From the NCBI RefSeq assembly GCF_032191835.1, contig NC_083243.1:173910001-173974000 (forward strand): 64,000 nt of DNA. Direction: 5' to 3'. A program made the position numbers and the translations under genes. The notes under the pieces were generated by a model that worked only from the letters and a program-made list of their open reading frames with translations, was not told where the DNA came from and did no database searches. Positions 2,934 through 62,007 of the stretch are shown here, piece by piece; position 1 is the first letter of the stretch; each line of letters starts with the position of its first letter. Source of the stretch: Heteronotia binoei. Taxonomy: Eukaryota.

Positions 2934-3414
2934 CATATGAACATATGAAGCTGCCTTATACTGAATCAGACCTTTGGTCCATCAAAGTCAGTATTGTCTT
3001 CTCAGACTGGCAGCGGCTCTCCAGGGTCTCAAGCTGAGGTTTTTCACACCTATTTGCCTGGACCCTTTTTAGTTGGAGATGCCGGGGATTGAACCTGGGA
3101 CCTTCTGCTTCCCAAGCAGATGCTCTACCACTGAGCCATTGTCCCTCCCCTGCTCTCCAGGGTCTCAAACTGAGGTTTTTCACACCTCTTTGCCTGGACC
3201 CTTTTTTGGAGATGCCGGGGATTGAACCTGGGACCTTCTGCTTCCCAAGCAGATGCTCTACCACTGAGCCACCGTCCCTCCCCTACTCTCCAGGTTCTCA
3301 AGCTGAGGTTTTTCACACCTATTTGCCTGGACCCTTTTTGGGAGATGCCGGGGATTGAACCTGGGACCTTCTGCTTCCCAAGCAGATGCTCTACCACTGA
3401 GCCACCGTCCCTCC
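2934..3414 (-). mobile_element. tRNA-Ala-derived SINE with CR1-like tail (Squam2-like); 5' 133 bp present in three tandem copies
   Basis: On the - strand: A box TGGCTCAGTGG, B box GGTTCAATCC, tRNA-Ala-type end TCCCCGGCATCTCC. Heads recur at 3075, 3208 and 3341 (period 133). Single tail ...GGCAGCTTCATATGTTCATATG. Confidence 0.85.
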
Positions 3415-12699: not shown

Positions 12700-13015
12700 T
12701 GCTCCCGTACCTCTCCCCTCTCTTGCTGAAGATTTCTTCACATGTGACTTTTTCCTTCATGGAGATAACCTCTGTATATGCTCCCATACCTCTCCCCTCT
12801 CTTGCTGAAGATTTCTTCACATGTGGCTTTTTCCTTCATGGAGATAACCTCTGTATATGCTCCCCTACCTCTCCCCTCTCTTGCTGAAGATTTCTTCACT
12901 TGTGACTTTTTCCTTCATGGAGATAACCTCTGTATATGCTCCCCTACCTCTCCCCTCTCTTGCTGAAGATTTCTTCACTTGTGACTTTTTCCTTCAAGGA
13001 GATAACCTCTGTATA
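12700..13015. repeat. 79-bp minisatellite, 4 copies
   Basis: Unit tgctcccNtacctctcccctctcttgctgaagatttcttcacWtgtgactttttccttcatggagataacctctgtata starts at 12700, 12779, 12858, 12937. Confidence 0.95.
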
Positions 13016-47226: not shown

Positions 47227-48114
47227 CCCACAATCACCCCTTTCCACCTGCAGCTCAGAGCCTCAGGGCCAGTATAACAACACCCGCCTCACGGACCCAC
47301 TGGATCGCTTCTATGTGCTGTTTATGGCTACCCCAGCCCCTCAGTTTCTCCTCAGTTCTTCCTGTTCAAACTTTTACCTCAGGAATATATAACTCAAGGG
47401 GTGAGTAATATATGGATTTCTCTGTACAAGTCTCTTCGGGGTATTTGTTTTCAGATGGATGTATAATTCTATTCGTAGGGGACCACAGCAGCTTTGACAG
47501 TTTCCCAAATTATAGGCACCAGAGAACTTTAAAATAAACCACAGATCTTTAATTAAACACAAAGTCATGAACTGGGGATATGGGAGATATTTACATAGGC
47601 TATCATGTATCTCATGCAGTTAACAAGTTGCTCGGTTGTTTCAGGCTTTAAATTATCTTTTTCTTCTTAGGTCTCTCAGGTTCACAGTTCCTATATAATA
47701 CACTCTCCACCACTAGTATAGGCTGGCCTCTTGGGTATACTGTGCCAAGTCTTCCAAGTCGATTGGAGCCTCTACTCCCAGCCCTTCAGACTCCTAGACC
47801 CACATATATTCCCTCAACCACCTCTCTAGCTCTTAAGAGATGTATAAGTGTCTGTGACCGTTCAGGTCTTCATAGTGACTCTCCTTCTTAGTCAAACACA
47901 GCCCCTTGCTGTTTTTCTAGAGCTAGCAGTCAGCTTTTCTTCTTATGAAGACTCTCCACAGCTACTGCCTCAGCTCCCGCAAAGACCGACTCTCTCTGAC
48001 ACTGGCCCTTTTCACACTTACCAGTGGAAACCGGAAGGGAGTCGGTATTGTGCCGCTTGCAGTAATCCGAGACAGGGATGGGAGTTTTCAGACACATGTT
48101 TTTTTTTCCGGTAG

Positions 48115-49410
48115 TGATACCCAGGAAGACACCCCTGTACTTATTCCCAAGCCATGCACCCCTGGAATGTGATATTGCAATGTAACCCTAGAATATTAAT
48201 TGGATACAGCAATGCCCATTTGAATTGGAATGGTCTTTCTTGCACATAAGGGAGACAAATCCAGTTCCTTCTTGACCCCAAAGCAGGTCTGTAATGTGAT
48301 TCTGGTTCACAGGCCAGAACAACATGATGCCAGCTGAAAGGTTGAGAAGCGTCCATCTTTCTGCTCCTGGGAATGAAAAAGTTTCGGGCTCAGAGAGGTG
48401 GTGTGGGCAGTGCCATAAAAATTCCTTCACTTTTGGCAACCTTTAAAAGTCCTGTTATCAAAGCATAAGGAAATAAGAATGACCCAGGAAACCTCCAACA
48501 CAAATAAATGGCTTGTGTCTGTCTGTTAATCCTCAGGACAAGACAGCAGGAAGGTTAGAGGCCAAGCACTCCTTTTGGTGTGAATGTGTGTTATAACCTG
48601 TAAACTGATCTCACAATTCTGACTTTTAACAAAGTTTCTATTTTTCTTTAATTAATTGCTAAGGCCATCAAAGTCAGCCAGTCCCCTGACCACTTGATGG
48701 ATGCCCATCCATGTTTGACACTAAGAGAGAAATCTATCACTTTTGGGGAGCTTCAAAGGAACCAGTTTTGGGAAAAACAAGGCCATAAAGTCATTTGGCC
48801 AGTGTAATTAAAATGCCTATGTTGGGGTATGGATCTATGATACGAATGGTCTCTGATTGGCTATTACACATATGACACCCCGACTTTCCATTGGTGTGAC
48901 ACTCTGCCCCCTCATTGGGTAGTGGAATTGAGTGATGTGACGTAATTTACCCTAGAAAACAGACAACCCAACCTGTCAGGTTTAGGGTTCGTGGATGCTG
49001 GTTGCAGAAGAAGAAAAAGGAAGGAAAAAGGGAATCCCTTCACCCTCTCCTTCCCCCACCCCCTTCCTACCCTCACCCCCCTCCTCTCAAGAGAAATCTC
49101 CCTCCAGAAGCCTTGCATTTTCCTCTGACTGAGTCTACCCTGCAAAGATCTAGGTATTGTATCACCCTCCCCCATCCTGCTTATTCAGCTAACCTCTTGT
49201 ATTCCTCTTGTATGCTTGAAATTGTTTGATTGAGAGGTAACTATTTGAAACCCTATGCTATAATAAAATCCATTATTAACCAAAGGATTTTCAGTGGTCT
49301 ATCTCCGTAGACAAAGACATAGATCCCATACACCTCACCTCTCGTAGGCCTACCATTTTGAGCTAAGAAATATTAACATTCCCCAATAAAAAGTTGTTTG
49401 AGGTGTAACA
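48115..49410 (+). repeat. 5' LTR (1296 bp)
   Basis: TGATAC...GTAACA; no differences from 59415-60710 found in block-by-block comparison; AATAAA at 49262 and 49385. Confidence 0.97.
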
Positions 49411-49414
49411 GAAG

Positions 49415-49433
49415 TGGTGGAGAATGCGGGCAT
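49415..49433 (+). promoter_or_regulatory. Primer-binding site complementary to the tRNA-Ala(AGC) 3' end; two degenerate copies at 49473 and 49535
   Basis: TGGTGGAGAATGCGGGCAT is the reverse complement of ATGCCCGCATTCTCCA-CCA, the 3' end of vertebrate tRNA-Ala-AGC as recalled. Confidence 0.85.
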
Positions 49434-50016
49434 GTCCTGTACTTTTGGGAACTGTGAGCTAAGCCTCAGAAGTGGTGGAGAATGCAGCGGGCATGTCCTG
49501 TACTTTTGGGGAACTGTGAGCTAAGCCTCAGAAGTAGTGGAGAATGTGATTGGCATGTCCTCTACTTTTGGGAGCTGTGAGCCAAGCCTCAGAACCTAAG
49601 TGTACAGACTTAGAGAAAAGACCCTGAAAAATCCTGGTTAAGTGTGTGTGTGAGATTCTGTGTGCTTGAAAACTATCGGTGGGGATCAGCTTTCTCTTTT
49701 TTTCTCTCTACGGTGGAGTGTCAGTCAGCCGCACCGATTGGGCCATGAGATTCCGTGCAAACGGCCATGAGCTTTAGTCGAACGCAAGGGGTTGACACTC
49801 GCTGAGGTCCTTGGGAATCAGTGCCCAGCATGGGCCTCCCTGTTTGTTATTTTGCCCAGGGCTATCTGGTTGGGTTCTCATAGGCCAGGGAAAAGTCTCA
49901 CCTGTGTGCAAAATCCCCTTTCTCAGGCAGAATGCTGTCCCTTTAAGGAGCAGCTCAAGAGAGAGCCAGCAGTTTTACCCTTAATGAGCAGCTCTGATTA
50001 AGCCAACAGAGACATC

Positions 50017-52353
50017 ATGTTCAACAAAAAGGACCCCTCAGACAAAAAGGAACCCTCTTCCCCATCCCAAACAATGTTTAAACCCAAAGAGAAGTTAGGC
50101 AAACTTCAGAAGTGGCTTATCAAACAAGGAGAGAACCCATGGAAGGGAGGTGTGTTTAAAGGGCCAGACCCACGCACCACTCTGAAAAATGCCTTTCAAG
50201 ATTTCTGTGAAGGGTTTAAGCCCCGTTCATCCTCTAAAGACAAGTATGCTGCTTGGGGTCTATGGTCAGCACTGGGAGACTGTGCTGAATATGCAAATGA
50301 GATGCAGGCTAGTTATGAGGAAGCTGCAGAAAAATTGGCAAAACTAGAAAAGGAATTAGCTGAGAGAACAGAGACAATGCAGAGAGACTCCAGAGAGAAA
50401 TTACATCAGCTAGAACAGGAATGGACAGAAAAATTGAACACTCTAAAACAGGAATCTGAGGAGAAACTAGAGGCTACTGAAAGATCCTACATAGAACAGA
50501 TAGACACACTACAATATGAGGCACACAACAGATGGGTCTCCCTTGACACAGAGTTACGTGAAAAATTAGAATTAAAGGAGACAGAGATAGAGAACTTGCG
50601 TGCTGAGAAATATGACCTATTTGTTGACAAGCAGGCTTATGCCTCCTCTTCTTTAGATGCCCAACAGAAACTTAAGGATGCTTTGACCCGTGCTAGTGCA
50701 GCAGAACAAAGGGCTGCAGACTTAGAAAAACAACTCACAGAAACTCAGCATGCAGCCAAATTTTTAGTACAGCACCAGTCTGCACAAAAACTTGAGTCTT
50801 CACATGACGCCTGCAGGAAAGAAATACACTCCCTCACACGCAAATTAGGACTACAGAAGGCCTTGATTGCCTCTGTACATCCAGGCACTATTGTAGACAT
50901 GGATTTCTCTGAGCTAGAGCCTGACAGTCAAGATGCTAAGCACCCACCCCCTCCTTACAACCCAGACTGGCCACCACTTAGACCAACTAGGCCTGGAGCT
51001 GCCCCACCCCCAGTCACCAGTAAACCAGTCAGCACTCAGGCTGACACAGACCCTATTTCTGAGCAAGCCCCTGAACCAGCTCCTGTCCAACCCGTAACTA
51101 CCAGAACAGTTTCCACCCGAAGTGCAGGAGGGAGACTGAATGTTCAGGAGGTCAGTGAAAAGGTACCCTGGAAGCCGCAGGAGGCAAAGGCTATTGCTGA
51201 CCAAATTGGTCCCCTTACTAGGGAGACTGGGACTGCCTGGTTCACTGCCATCCAGAACACCTACCCAAATGCTATAGGAGAAGACCTTTCTCAGCTAGCA
51301 AGGCTCTGTACAAATGGAATAGATGGCCCCACCATTGAATCTGGTATAGCCACACGCCATCTCTCAGCTCTTAGAAACCAGCTTGACTGGATGAGAGAGG
51401 TCGCAAAATTGCTCTGGCCCGGACGCCCACTTGAACATCTGTACATCACAGAAACTCAAGGCCCAGGGGAAAACCCAGAAGCATATGTAGATAGGAAAAA
51501 GCTTTTAGCCATGCTAGCAAGGAGAGTTCAAAGCCTACATGGAACCTATGAATTTGATGATGCAGACTTTAAAACAACGCTTGTTGCAGGACTAAATACC
51601 CAGACAAAAACCATCATTGGCCTACTGGATCCCATTGCAGTTCCTTGGGACACATTAGCAGCCAGAATTAGGCAGGCTACTGACTATCTGAGAGAGACAG
51701 GAGGCCTGAAACTGCAAAACCGTTCCAATCGTAAAAATCAGGAGCCCAAAAACTCAGAGCCAATTCAGGTAGTCACATATGCTAACAATGGGCCTCATTC
51801 ACAATACAGGAATGAGACAAACAGCCGACCTAATGCACCTCAGCCCCCTCCACGCAGCTGGAATAGGGACAGGGCAGGCAACAATAGATACGGACATGAC
51901 CCTGCTAGAGCTGCCCCACCCCAGAATTTTCACCCAGCTCCCCCTCCTAGACAGAATCCCCCTTCAGCTCCAGCACAAATGACACAAGGACTTGCTCAGG
52001 GACCGCCACACAGTCAGGCACCCCAGTATCTCCCACAAGAAACACTGAGAAAGGCTGTTTGGAACCAGCTCAGAGACACAGGAGCTGATATGTCTTACTA
52101 TGACAAGCAACCCTTGCAAGTGCTCCTTGCAGGCCTTCTGAATTCTATGCCCCCTGCTGCTATGCAAAATCAAGCTACACTCATGCCTGCCGCTACACAA
52201 AGCCAGCCTTTACACAGTCAGCTTGCCCAGAGCCAACCTGCACACTCGAGGCCCACAACCCCACCCCAAGCACAGAATTCAAACCCTTTCCATGCCCCTC
52301 AAGAACATCGTGTTTGCCACGACCAACGTCCAGGGCCTAGCCACCAGCAATAG
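50017..52353 (+). CDS. gag: Gag, 778 aa
   Basis: ATG in context ATCATGT; coiled coil at about aa 90-280; PPPPY (50944-50958); MHR-like QGPGENPEAYVDR (51457-51495); PSAP (51961-51972); no CCHC; ends at UAG. Confidence 0.92.
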   Translation: MFNKKDPSDKKEPSSPSQTMFKPKEKLGKLQKWLIKQGENPWKGGVFKGPDPRTTLKNAFQDFCEGFKPRSSSKDKYAAWGLWSALGDCAEYANEMQASYEEAAEKLAKLEKELAERTETMQRDSREKLHQLEQEWTEKLNTLKQESEEKLEATERSYIEQIDTLQYEAHNRWVSLDTELREKLELKETEIENLRAEKYDLFVDKQAYASSSLDAQQKLKDALTRASAAEQRAADLEKQLTETQHAAKFLVQHQSAQKLESSHDACRKEIHSLTRKLGLQKALIASVHPGTIVDMDFSELEPDSQDAKHPPPPYNPDWPPLRPTRPGAAPPPVTSKPVSTQADTDPISEQAPEPAPVQPVTTRTVSTRSAGGRLNVQEVSEKVPWKPQEAKAIADQIGPLTRETGTAWFTAIQNTYPNAIGEDLSQLARLCTNGIDGPTIESGIATRHLSALRNQLDWMREVAKLLWPGRPLEHLYITETQGPGENPEAYVDRKKLLAMLARRVQSLHGTYEFDDADFKTTLVAGLNTQTKTIIGLLDPIAVPWDTLAARIRQATDYLRETGGLKLQNRSNRKNQEPKNSEPIQVVTYANNGPHSQYRNETNSRPNAPQPPPRSWNRDRAGNNRYGHDPARAAPPQNFHPAPPPRQNPPSAPAQMTQGLAQGPPHSQAPQYLPQETLRKAVWNQLRDTGADMSYYDKQPLQVLLAGLLNSMPPAAMQNQATLMPAATQSQPLHSQLAQSQPAHSRPTTPPQAQNSNPFHAPQEHRVCHDQRPGPSHQQ

Positions 52354-56199: not shown

Positions 56200-56356
56200 G
56201 GCTACAAGCATTGAGCTACTATGTAAATATAGGAAACTTGACCCTGCACCCCAGCAGCAAGGGGGGGGGCAAGCCTCTGCTATTTGTATATATTTTTCTT
56301 TCTTGATCTTCAGCTAGAAGTACTATGCAACTAGGCATAACCCTTTTCCCTTACAG

Positions 56357-56566
56357 AATACACTCTCCTCCAAGGATTGCACTTCAGGACGAGGTTGTTT
56401 TTCTTTTTAAATTTTTAAATATTGTCATCCCATAGTGATAATCCTTGCCATACAAGCTGGCATGGTAGTCTTTTTAATTTATCTGGTATGTTGGTTAAGG
56501 CGTCAATTCAATAGACTAGAAGCCTTGGCAAACTCAATCAAATATAGTCACTCAGAAGAACTATGA
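56357..56566 (+). pseudogene. Possible env transmembrane/cytoplasmic-tail remnant
   Basis: After acceptor-like ttttcccttacag: NTLSSKDCTSGRGCFSF*IFKYCHPIVIILAIQAGMVVFLIYLVCWLRRQFNRLEALANSIKYSHSEEL*; 22-aa hydrophobic run followed by RR. Confidence 0.45.
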
Positions 56567-59403
56567 ATGCATTACAATTTTCACAAAAATATCTATATAT
56601 GCATATATTTAGGCATATGTGCATATATATCTAAGAACAAACAGAATTTTTTTTAGGAATTTTTTTTTTTTTTTTTTAAAAATGCCAACCTCCAGGGCAA
56701 ACCTGGAGATCTCCAGCTGAGACCTGGAGACATGCAAATGAAGTCTGGATTTTGTGTTTAATGTAGCAGCCAATGAAAGTATTCAAAACTCAAAAGAAGG
56801 AACCAAAAACAAAAACTCAAAAGAGAAAAACCAAAAAAAAACTCTGAGCATTTCCTTTTAGCAAAGGATTGGCTCTAAGTGAAACTTTAGGATGCCAGCT
56901 CCAGCCTGGAGGTTCCAAATATTTGAAGACTGCATTGGAAAACCATAACACATGGTGCCTTATTTTTCTTAAAGCCCTTTTCCCCAAAGAGACATGGCAC
57001 TTAGTTCCAGGCATAAGATATAATATTGGAGGAAGTAATCTCCAGGTTCCAACTGGAGACTGGCAACCTTACAAGAGCAGCCATGTTTCCCCCCTTTTCA
57101 GAAATCCCACATGTTCTCCCCCCCCTTTTCTCTACAGTCTCTCCCTTGCATGCTTAGCAGGAACTACAAGCAACTGCCACACCTACCCATTTCTCTCCCC
57201 TCATCGCTAACAACTCTGCTCTGTACTTGCACGCCAACCCTGCAAGGCAGACCAGGTACAAACAGCACGTTTGTGCAATGAGAACAGAGAAACAGTCCAA
57301 AAAGCCTTAAATGCCAAGGCAAACAGACAAACAGCATTATTTTGAAAACTCCAGCCAGACTTTTTTTTTACAAAACTTCCCCCACAGAGAAACTTTTTAA
57401 AATTAAAACAAAGACCAGTGACCACGTGGTCAGCACAGAGATATACCTTAGACAAAGGAAAGGCAAAGAACTACAAAGAGTTTTTTCTTCCTCTCTCCCT
57501 TCAGTCCAGAAAAAACTAGGGGGGGAAGTCAGTGATTTTTGAATGGAAGTCAGTGATTTTTGAATAAGAATCTAGTACTGTGGAAGGAAAGTCAGAGATT
57601 TTTTGAATAGATTTTTGAATGGAGATTTTTGAATGGATTTCTGAATAGATCCAATGAGTTTTGAACAGAATCTAGTATTTTTGAAAGGAAATTAGTTTTG
57701 AACAGAATCTAGTATTTTTGAAAGGAAATTCTTTTTAACCCAAGTTTGAACAGAGTTTTTTTAAATGCCTTCCCTTTTAAATTAAGCATTTTTTTTTTCT
57801 CTGCAAACAGCCAAAAGCAATTTTTATTCCCCCTTGCTGGAAATTGGGAACTGCAAGCAGAATTTTTAAGCCTCTCATATGCTTCTACAGATTTCACAGC
57901 CAGGCAATGGCTGATACCAGCTTCCCTCTTCCCCCCTCCATTGCATGACGTTTATACTTACAAAAGAACCGGGTGTTTTGAAATTCTTATCTCCTTGTGT
58001 TCTCCTTTTTTTTCCGCTCCATGCAGGGAAAACAAATCCTTTGTTCAATAAGGAAATAAAGGAAAAACAGACTGCTTTTTCTTTCTAGATCACAAAAAAT
58101 CACAGAGAAAGACGAAGCCATCTCTTTTTCCAAAAATGAGAAAAGGAAAAAGTGCCCTGCAACCCACATTTTTGTATGGGGCAGGACTGACTTAATTTAA
58201 AAGGAAAAACAGGAAATTTTACCAAAAAGTATACCAGCATTGCAGAGACACATGTGCTCAGAGCCATCTTTCTTCCTCTGTCGTCTGAAGAAGAAGAGGA
58301 GCAGGAAATGGGTGGAGTCCCACTGGGACAATGAATTGCCTACTTGTGGCATGTAGCTAAAGGAATGCAACCTTTTGTTTTACAAATGGCCCTGAAGAAA
58401 CAGAGGGCATTTTAACCTCATGTGCTATATCTTCCAGCTCATTTACACACACGCCAGCAGTAAAAATGACCCTGAAGACTTCAGTTTGCCCAAACAAAGG
58501 TGTGCAGCAAAAAAACCTGTCCCTTCGGAAATGATGGTTCCAGGTACATCCCTGCTGCAAGAATACAAGGGGAAAGAATAACAGATTTCAAGATGTGCCT
58601 GTTAATTCTGTATATGCATAGACTAAGCTTACAAGAGGAAACTATCAATGTAAATGTACCTATGTATCTTTGTTGCTGAACCCCATTTTGCTGTAGACTA
58701 ATAGAATCCTATGTTCTTTCCCCCTCCCCCTCAAGAAAATGATATTCTATGTTTGTCTTCAAGTTTGATAAGAATATTTTAGCCATGAGTTAATAACTGC
58801 CTGTTTGGTAGTTTAGAAACATTGAGCATATATTTTGAACATTTTTTTTGTGTGTGTAACTATGCAATTTTTGATATCCTGTTAATTAGCAATATAAGTT
58901 TAGTTACTGTTTTGTACTTCATTTATATTAGAACCTATGATTAGCTATTATAAGTGACCTTATATATGCATAGTATAGTATAGAAGGAGGATTGGTCTTG
59001 TTAAAAATGTATACTCTCAGTTTTAAAAGGCAAGAAACTGTCTTTCCCCTAAGCACCTATCCAAAGATGGTTTTGACCATTTATAACTCCCATGTTCTTC
59101 GTACATGCAACCTCAGAGGCTCAGTGTTCATTATCAGAAACATATATGCACACCCCATGAATTCAGCTTAACCCACTAAAGGTTCCAGTTAATTTTTGAA
59201 CTGGCCTGCAGTTTTTTTATTATTATTATTTTTACCTTTTAATTGGCTGCAAGATTTTAAAGCTCCCACATTTTTTCCTTTTCTCTCTCTTTTCCTCTCA
59301 ATCATATTTTATGGCCTGACATTTCTTTCTCTTTCTATATCTGTATGAATGGTTGTACCTTGATGTGAAAAAGAAGTCTCACTAAGAGTTCGCCTCCATT
59401 TTC

Positions 59404-59414
59404 AAGGGGGGGAC
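59404..59414 (+). promoter_or_regulatory. Polypurine tract
   Basis: AAGGGGGGGAC immediately before the 3' LTR TG. Confidence 0.9.
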
Positions 59415-60710
59415 TGATACCCAGGAAGACACCCCTGTACTTATTCCCAAGCCATGCACCCCTGGAATGTGATATTGCAATGTAACCCTAGAATATTAAT
59501 TGGATACAGCAATGCCCATTTGAATTGGAATGGTCTTTCTTGCACATAAGGGAGACAAATCCAGTTCCTTCTTGACCCCAAAGCAGGTCTGTAATGTGAT
59601 TCTGGTTCACAGGCCAGAACAACATGATGCCAGCTGAAAGGTTGAGAAGCGTCCATCTTTCTGCTCCTGGGAATGAAAAAGTTTCGGGCTCAGAGAGGTG
59701 GTGTGGGCAGTGCCATAAAAATTCCTTCACTTTTGGCAACCTTTAAAAGTCCTGTTATCAAAGCATAAGGAAATAAGAATGACCCAGGAAACCTCCAACA
59801 CAAATAAATGGCTTGTGTCTGTCTGTTAATCCTCAGGACAAGACAGCAGGAAGGTTAGAGGCCAAGCACTCCTTTTGGTGTGAATGTGTGTTATAACCTG
59901 TAAACTGATCTCACAATTCTGACTTTTAACAAAGTTTCTATTTTTCTTTAATTAATTGCTAAGGCCATCAAAGTCAGCCAGTCCCCTGACCACTTGATGG
60001 ATGCCCATCCATGTTTGACACTAAGAGAGAAATCTATCACTTTTGGGGAGCTTCAAAGGAACCAGTTTTGGGAAAAACAAGGCCATAAAGTCATTTGGCC
60101 AGTGTAATTAAAATGCCTATGTTGGGGTATGGATCTATGATACGAATGGTCTCTGATTGGCTATTACACATATGACACCCCGACTTTCCATTGGTGTGAC
60201 ACTCTGCCCCCTCATTGGGTAGTGGAATTGAGTGATGTGACGTAATTTACCCTAGAAAACAGACAACCCAACCTGTCAGGTTTAGGGTTCGTGGATGCTG
60301 GTTGCAGAAGAAGAAAAAGGAAGGAAAAAGGGAATCCCTTCACCCTCTCCTTCCCCCACCCCCTTCCTACCCTCACCCCCCTCCTCTCAAGAGAAATCTC
60401 CCTCCAGAAGCCTTGCATTTTCCTCTGACTGAGTCTACCCTGCAAAGATCTAGGTATTGTATCACCCTCCCCCATCCTGCTTATTCAGCTAACCTCTTGT
60501 ATTCCTCTTGTATGCTTGAAATTGTTTGATTGAGAGGTAACTATTTGAAACCCTATGCTATAATAAAATCCATTATTAACCAAAGGATTTTCAGTGGTCT
60601 ATCTCCGTAGACAAAGACATAGATCCCATACACCTCACCTCTCGTAGGCCTACCATTTTGAGCTAAGAAATATTAACATTCCCCAATAAAAAGTTGTTTG
60701 AGGTGTAACA
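59415..60710 (+). repeat. 3' LTR (1296 bp)
   Basis: Copy of 48115-49410 at offset 11300; the short ORFs in the ORF track are identical in both copies. Confidence 0.97.
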
Positions 60711-62007
60711 GTAGGGTTCCGTGATTGAAGCGAGCCATTTCACACTTATCCGCTCTTATCTCGCTTCCACCAGCGCCAGCCGTTTTTGCCTGCCGGCTCG
60801 CGATCTCCAGCTTTTTTTTTTTTTTTTTGGAACGTCGGGCTAAGATCGCTATAGCGACATATCACAACAGCAGCACCATAGAGATGGCTAGGCTCTATTG
60901 AGATAAGTTACCAGGTTTCAGCGGTGGCGATATCTGGCATCTTAATGGAGCCCAGGCATCCCTATGGTGATGCTGTTGTGATACATCGCTATAGCGCTAT
61001 AGCGATCTTAGCCCGACGTTCCCCCCCCCAAAAAAGCCGGAAATCGCGCGCGCCGGCGGGCGAAAAAGGGCGCGAAAACTGCTCCCGGGTTAGATACTGG
61101 ACATTTCACACAGCACCCCATAGCGATTTCAACCCGGAAGGAGGGGTTGAAAAGTGGAAGAAGCTGCTCTTTGTTTGTAACGACTCAGGCACGCCTCACT
61201 ACCGGGACAGCCGCGGGAGTGTGTGAAAAGGTGAGAGTATTCCGGTAGCAGCCAGTTACTGAATCGGGTCTGTCTGAAATGCCAGCAGAAACCCGTTACT
61301 GTTCAGTAACTGACCAGCTTCCATACCGGAATACATAGACTGTGTGAAAAAGCCCTCTGTCAGGCACTAACTGTCTCTCCACAGATTCTGTCAGACACTA
61401 ACTACTGCCTCAGCCGTTAGCTGTCAATCTCACTGAGAGTTCTGAGCACTCTGGCCCCCACCCTCAGGTCACCTGACGCAGGCTCTGTGTGTCCTTGGTT
61501 TTCTGTTTAACCCATACCTTACTGTCACAGCCAGCCTCACCATGTTCATAGCCCAAGGCAAAAAGGCTTCAGTCCCCACCCCAGTCAGTTGTTTCCTCTG
61601 ATGGCAGTGGGGGAAGTGGTTCCAGAATAGTGCTGGGTGTAAGCACTGTACTCAAATATCCTAAAGAGACAAGAGAGTCCCATTCTAGAACAGCTACCTT
61701 AGGAAAACTGCATGCAGAGCTTAGAATTTATCTGGATTACAGGAGAAACAGAGCTGCAGCCAATCCATGTCCCTTCCTTCCAATGTCTAATAACATTACA
61801 ATGCATCATGTACTACCTTTATTCTTGCAGTCCTGCCTGCCATCAATGGCTATTAACTGGTGGTAGGACAACGAACAATGTGATGTTATTCAAGTAGGTT
61901 ACAAGGAAGAAGGAGGAAAGAGGCACGGAAGTGACATGGCTCTCTTGCGACTTCTAGCTGGACTGTTCGACATGCTTCTCTTCTCAGGTGGGACTAGTGC
62001 TAGTGAT

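Follow-up and report, generated by a model that had tools for sequence, protein, structure and literature searches.

A length-variable tandem array of tRNA-Ala primer-binding sites in a young endogenous retrovirus family of Heteronotia binoei

Introduction

The retroviral primer-binding site is usually treated as one fixed 18-nt element. In the genome of Heteronotia binoei (assembly GCF_032191835.1), a stretch of 64,000 nucleotides (contig NC_083243.1, positions 173,910,001 to 173,974,000, forward strand; hereafter the window, to which all positions refer) holds a provirus in which a primer-binding site appears three times in tandem. Which of these sites primes reverse transcription, how did the additional ones come about, and do they serve any purpose? 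These questions are addressed here by comparing the provirus with its relatives in the same genome and with the host tRNA genes.

A young, env-less provirus

The window provirus is 12.6 kb long, env-less and, as its LTRs are identical, very young (Table 1). It is an endogenous retrovirus, Retroviridae-like in its LTRs, target-site duplication, primer-binding site, polypurine tract, pol domain order and reverse transcriptase (RT) affinity. In pol, PF17919/PF17917 are followed by PF00075 and then by PF17921 and PF00665, a dual RNase H arrangement. The best matches of the RT in PDB are p80 RT/RNase H chains (259 bits), with Ty3 at 116-121 bits. In an RT tree of 54 rows the window family is split from the gypsy-like rows (100/99) and groups with turtle and bird sequences (98/99), in a clade that includes class I-like rows as well, apart from an unnamed fish clade. 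An assignment to Ty3/gypsy (Metaviridae) was ruled out by the dual RNase H and by the position of the RT outside the gypsy rows. The gag frame, which ends in a TAG in frame with pol, gave no Pfam hit, no CCHC knuckle and no homologue at E 1e-5 among 8000 candidates; expression of pol by read-through of this TAG is presumed.

Table 1. Features of the provirus and its primer-site array in the window
Feature	Position	Strand	Remarks
Target-site duplication, 4 bp (left)	48111..48114	+	same 4 letters beside the 3' LTR
5' LTR, TG...CA, 1296 bp	48115..49410	+	identical to the 3' LTR, 1296/1296
Unit 1	49409..49466	+	LTR-terminal CA, 4-nt spacer (49411-49414), primer-binding site, tail; 58 nt
Primer-binding site of unit 1	49415..49433	+	19-nt match to host tRNA-Ala(AGC); putative working site
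Three predicted hairpins, primer site with its own tail	49409..49572	+	prediction, without covariation support
Unit 2	49467..49528	+	62 nt; +3 nt 'I' allele at 49473-49494
Unit 3	49529..49589	+	61 nt; older +3 nt 'T' allele at 49535-49556; CCA-pairing start broken
CAGAA	49590..49594	+	5-nt microhomology with LTR end plus spacer; putative founding junction
gag ORF, 783 aa stop to stop	50002..52353	+	called gag by position
pol ORF, 1281 aa	52354..56199	+	protease (weak hit), RT, tether RNase H, RNase H, integrase
Polypurine tract	59404..59414	+	abuts the 3' LTR
3' LTR	59415..60710	+	1296 bp, no extra unit; 4-bp duplication (60711-60714) directly after

The placement among named retroviral groups is less specific. 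ERV3 and ERV4, as given in Table 1 of PMC4299795, share with the window family a gag without zinc finger but have a 5-bp target-site duplication, as opposed to 4 bp here. Lokiretroviruses likewise possess a dual RNase H (PMC7947760), a trait common to all retroviruses and so not diagnostic, and the RT of the window family groups with class I-like rows in a tree that holds no named loki sequence. Reptile lokiretroviruses are described as highly degraded, and the main text of the same source is silent on their primer sites. In the accessible text of PMC9040795, PMC12440569, PMC2717909, PMC8278194, PMC7411029, PMC12193657, PMC4299795, PMC6450007, 10.1101/2024.03.25.586437 and 10.1101/2024.03.17.585361 the family is not placed by name.

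Some further features of the provirus deserve mention. Between pol and the polypurine tract, about 3.2 kb (56200-59400) contain no ORF above 120 aa and several short tandem repeats. An AATAAA stands at 49385-49390, 20 nt before the LTR end; should it serve as the poly(A) signal, hardly any U5 would be left. Near 49260, a second stretch containing AATAAA may represent the poly(A) signal or a TATA box.

Three primer sites in the window, two to five in the family

The array consists of three head-to-tail units directly 3' of the 5' LTR, closed by CAGAA, with primer-binding sites starting at 49415, 49473 and 49535. In this respect the earlier note on this DNA was accurate, as coordinates, starts and sequences all agree, and Tandem Repeats Finder concurs (49409-49594, period 62, 3.1 copies, 89% matches, score 278). 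The three-unit count at this locus comes from the genome assembly; in an independent public run, one contig crosses a unit-to-unit junction (49481-49566, 2 differences). RNA reads of three runs (about 6% of each) cover the LTR, with zero depth at 49412-50227. Two other tandem arrays lie elsewhere in the window, one of 3 x 133 bp with tRNA-Pro-like calls, probably SINE-derived (3016-3414), and one of 4 x 79 bp (12700-13015).

As a DNA search for relatives scored 40 of 784 candidates, units were counted by whole-genome patterns instead. These returned 60 unit tails and 29 exact unit-to-unit junctions (control 0), all of the latter in 16 loci with two units (five loci), three units (ten, one of which is without the front of unit 1) or five units (one). 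Eighteen older copies have one unit each, and there too a CAGAA follows the unit. In gag, the multi-unit loci occupy the first 16 places (97-100%) among 37 candidates, all of them scored, and the downstream leader unites them in a single clade (100/98). A full-length pol frame is present in 14 of these 16 young copies, LTRs are identical in nine of the 14 that have both (one more differs only by a clipped 5' end), and the median gag-pol divergence among them is 1.3%; no long frame was found in the family-aligned part of the 16 older copies scanned. A single unit occurs in none of the 16 young copies. The array is accordingly a length-variable primer-site repeat common to all of them, as the note's idea of a family-maintained array implied, and its worry that the triplication might be private to one copy is laid to rest by the spread of the junctions over 16 loci. 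An assembly artefact, or slippage confined to the window copy, would be compatible with a unit number read from the assembly; against the number of junctions and loci, the locus-specific variants and the junction recovered in an independent run, this explanation carries practically no weight.

In two of the 16 young copies, an extra segment of about 2.2 kb after pol carries a 782-aa ORF (G000); the window copy and most young copies are without it. In the one of the two that was examined, the start resembles a signal peptide, a furin-type site is present and a hydrophobic segment lies at the C-terminal end; no Pfam hit rises above noise. All six of its PDB hits are F proteins, at weak E values of 0.2-0.6, and its Atlas top score is 0.92, in Fusion_gly clusters with low recognition. 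The ORF thus looks like an envelope-like protein with a weak resemblance to paramyxovirus-type fusion proteins, a feature recalling lokiretroviruses as described in the available part of PMC7947760.

Other rearrangements were noted in the family. One locus (L042:1395-1724) contains a different tandem, in which a segment of about 164 bp, composed of the unit, part of the leader and the end of the LTR, is repeated; the 4-bp flanks match, and internal genes are absent. Seven older copies (L025, L027, L028, L029, L030, L111, L113) break or jump at the stretch homologous to 49750-49791; these 40 bp hold a short direct repeat and may be a recombination or splice hot spot. The 4-bp target duplication is mismatched at its third letter in L003, L015 and L016, three of the 13 young multi-unit copies with both ends, two of which have identical LTRs.

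Primer tRNA and use of tRNA-Ala in the genome

The complement of the 19 nt of unit 1, taken as an exact tRNA 3'-end pattern with CCA, has three matches in the genome (control 0), all of them tRNA-Ala(agc) genes by ARAGORN, which bears out the earlier identification of tRNA-Ala(AGC) as the primer. A looser 3'-end pattern found eight places with four 3'-end variants, seven called as tRNA-Ala(AGC) and one uncalled. Three isodecoder ends were distinguished in the host, A (three genes), B (three) and C (one), and comparisons with isodecoders below refer to tRNA-Ala genes fitting one pattern and not to the full tRNA set.

Priming by tRNA-Ala, which the note had taken to be rare among vertebrate retroviruses, is not rare in this genome, where two other LTR families use tRNA-Ala(AGC) sites. 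A pattern combining LTR end and site has 68 matches, as against 10 in the control; among 20 hits examined, 11 belong to one group, four to a sister group and one to the window family, while four lack similarity. Loci L099-L109 form a separate LTR group, presumably Gmr1-like, with sites fitting the same isodecoder variants and with integrase before RT in 6/11. The sister family (L092-L095), whose gag is 26-44% identical in 3/4, has a single tRNA-Ala site with no insertion. Neither an insertion nor a tandem unit is present in any of 15 copies of these two groups, three of which hold weak site-like 12-mers 150-510 nt downstream. The word 'Ala' does not occur in the readable supplementary files of PMC4299795.

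Only the LTR-proximal unit is likely to prime

In unit 1 the first four letters, which pair with the tRNA 3' end, are intact in 15/15 young copies, and in six of the 15 an 18-nt match to a host isodecoder is found (three A, two B and one C). The CCA-pairing start is intact in five of 29 later units, and an 18-nt isodecoder match in none. The retroviral plus strand copies the primer tRNA and can thereby revert the primer site (PMC7472051, as far as available). Since exact matches to different isodecoders occur in unit 1 only, unit 1 is likely to be the site that is primed, and the only one. Internal priming would moreover lengthen the 3' LTR by one unit, and no extended 3' LTR was found among the 14 copies with both LTRs (in two of the 16 young copies the 3' LTR lies beyond the stretch retrieved). 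Internal priming was therefore rejected as a candidate, as neither of its predictions, extended 3' LTRs and reset later units, was found.

The same counts bear on a suggestion of the earlier note, that the later units could act as alternative primer sites, and on their use as back-up by other tRNAs or when unit 1 is blocked. Three of the five later units with an intact start carry an allele that serves in first position elsewhere, and every junction re-creates the CA and 4-nt spacer found at the LTR end. However, beside the lack of any exact tRNA match and of extended 3' LTRs, the predicted net gain from tRNA binding is -3 to -16.5 kcal/mol for later units vs -16.5 to -28 for unit 1, and an alternative or back-up use is in our judgement very improbable.

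Later units carry pre-existing alleles

The note described the second site as bearing an insertion and the third as further mutated, a picture of progressive decay that did not survive comparison with other copies. The +3 nt allele of window unit 2 ('I') is the first-position site in 9/15 young copies, and the insertion type of window unit 3 ('T') is the sole primer site in 12 of the 18 older single-unit copies (8 clear, 4 decayed); of the remainder, four are without insertion and two have other insertions. Decay after duplication is rejected because the same alleles thus pre-exist as first or sole sites elsewhere, and units 2 and 3 are, judging from their alleles, not decayed duplicates of unit 1. 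The family as a whole has no fewer than five distinct 3-5 nt insertions, or extensions that are misaligned, after primer-site nt 11 (nt 11-15). The terminal unit of every young array is of T-type, its last 25 nt being invariant save for one added T, and its start is broken in 14/16 cases by three different substitutions.

A template jump and recombination as the probable origin

The unit runs from the LTR-terminal CA to just before the second CAGAA, so that a 5-nt microhomology bounds it, and the presumed founding junction coincides with the 5' edge of the primer site, the point at which minus-strand synthesis is known to stop. The reading that we prefer, with a probability of roughly 0.6, is that one template jump at CAGAA founded the array, that recombination during reverse transcription alters its length, and that only unit 1 primes. 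In the older state, one unit is flanked at both ends by CAGAA-like sequence. Minus-strand DNA, on reaching the 5' edge of the primer site, may have left the template and paired anew with the downstream CAGAA, whereby the unit would be copied twice. The mosaics of two, three and five units seen in young copies would then arise by template switching between co-packaged RNAs. In retroviruses, copying of the tRNA into the plus strand resets just the site used, and unit 1 would on this account revert to the exact match of the priming isodecoder. The later units, never exact and mostly with a broken start, would no longer prime, whether through junction errors piling up there or through purging of internal priming. 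In this reading no function of the extra units is needed, and they may simply be carried along with the currently active lineage.

The composition of the arrays fits an origin of the extra copies by strand transfer or recombination, as the note had suspected. No two of the five 2-unit arrays share their second unit, and in the 5-unit array units 1-2 of a 3-unit type occur again. In two chimeric units the crossover can be placed within 4-8 nt of the 5' edge of the site; in others it is mid-unit. Strand transfer in this family appears imprecise, since six distinct deletion or inversion junctions are found at seven loci, in the spacer or at site nt 11, 13, 14, 17 and 19; spacer length ranges from 3 to 6 nt among copies. 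Units are not independent, so that counts of them overstate the number of events. In terminal units, five of eight substitutions fall in 7 nt at the 5' edge of the site (binomial P 0.0008, with the interval picked post hoc), a cluster that is expected both under junction error and under selection against internal priming. As the trees of the young clade mostly lack resolution, the order of events is read from the array mosaics only. Similar processes are described elsewhere: template switching yields deletions and duplications (PMC3187697), and aberrant second-strand transfer at the primer site with comparable errors is reported in HIV-1 (PMC12657518), in both cases according to the portions available.

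Unit number could also shift mainly through unequal crossing-over or slippage in the host chromosome after integration and not during reverse transcription. Tandem 60-bp repeats can slip in genomic DNA, and the mid-unit crossovers are compatible with either route. The many copies with identical LTRs leave little chromosomal time, however, and the arrays mix unit alleles of different loci while junction errors concentrate at the primer site; a chromosomal route is consequently considered improbable.

A difficulty for a neutral recombination origin is that retroviral direct repeats are unstable, with a 110-bp repeat in one vector deleted at a rate of 41% per cycle (PMC3187697, available part), yet none of the 16 young copies is back at one unit. 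On the assumption that the five 2-unit arrays arose by contraction and that one third of contractions yield one unit, the absence of one-unit young copies has P = 0.13, which is not significant, although its direction is that of selection. A second, primer-dead unit may hence be under selection.

Predicted hairpins and a tentative role for the extra units

According to folding predictions, every unit forms a hairpin that would mask its primer site. The hairpins of units 1, 2 and 3 in the window have energies of -11.8, -15.4 and -18.2 kcal/mol and z of -2.1, -2.8 and -4.2 (200 shuffles each). The two common 3-nt insertions both map to the loop of the predicted hairpin, which they make more stable by about 3.5-4.5 kcal/mol. 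Several derived changes of later units turn a mismatch or wobble into a pair and make the predicted hairpin stronger, and the folds of distinct later units are more stable than those of distinct first units (Mann-Whitney P 0.027, on non-independent units). Some common derived changes weaken the predicted stem. Covariation is not above shuffles, 475 of 500 of which reach the observed values (21 selected distinct units of 64 folded), and the whole 311-nt leader is modestly structured (z -1.8, with 6/100 shuffles equally good).

These predictions allow a selected division of labour to be put forward, in which the ancestral unit combined primer site and hairpin, unit 1 now primes and the later units, as primer-dead hairpins, would function in packaging or dimerisation or would titrate tRNA-Ala 3' fragments. 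Duplication of the primer-site hairpin would thus have resolved a conflict between priming and structure: unit 1 would be corrected by the tRNA, while a loop insertion would keep it imperfect and weaken silencing by tRNA fragments, the primer-dead copies would be selected as structural or decoy modules, and error-prone strand transfer would regenerate the array. Consistent with this are the presence of at least two units in 16/16 young copies, the shared T-type end with its nearly invariant last 25 nt, the three different substitutions that broke the terminal starts, and the stabler folds of later units and of sites with the common loop insertions. On the other hand, the covariation result, the weakened stems and the modest z of the leader argue against it, single-unit ancestors did replicate, and one origin followed by a sweep would equally give 16/16. 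Such a role is consequently offered as the main alternative, tentative and, at present, rather unlikely.

Comparison with known systems

The family provides a natural allelic series within one genome, with one to five units, exact and bulged sites, and three isodecoders. As the later units are not reset by the tRNA, they act as an internal control, and the site that primes and the tRNAs used can be read from DNA alone. If the extra units are neutral, the array is a clear record of imprecise strand transfer, of limited wider interest. Vectors with two primer sites have been worked on, and no report of a variable-length whole-site tandem array was found in the literature searched, which excludes most subscription papers.

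The comparisons that follow draw on those parts of the cited sources that were available. The closest precedent is HIV-1 MAL, in which a natural primer-site duplication lies just downstream of the working site and is inherited in the lineage (PMC3185550, PMC7411029). There, however, the duplication is one fixed and partial copy of 23-24 nt, whereas here the whole site and its tail occur 2-5 times, with number and allele content still changing. Among mouse ETn, MusD and IAP elements, an imperfect primer-binding site is commoner than a perfect one in young copies, as in 9/15 here, the perfect sites look like tRNA-copying reversions, again as here, and the imperfect sites have been proposed as an escape from 3'-tRF silencing (PMC7472051). 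These elements carry a single site, in contrast to the insertions of 3-5 nt after nt 11-15 within a tandem array in the present family. In the alternative isodecoder priming of HIV-1/SIV, a one-base change of the site records the use of a second isodecoder, which is likewise the case here; this use amounts to about 0.5% in HIV-1 (PMC6450007), as compared to 3/6 exact first sites that match a second or third isodecoder in the H. binoei family.
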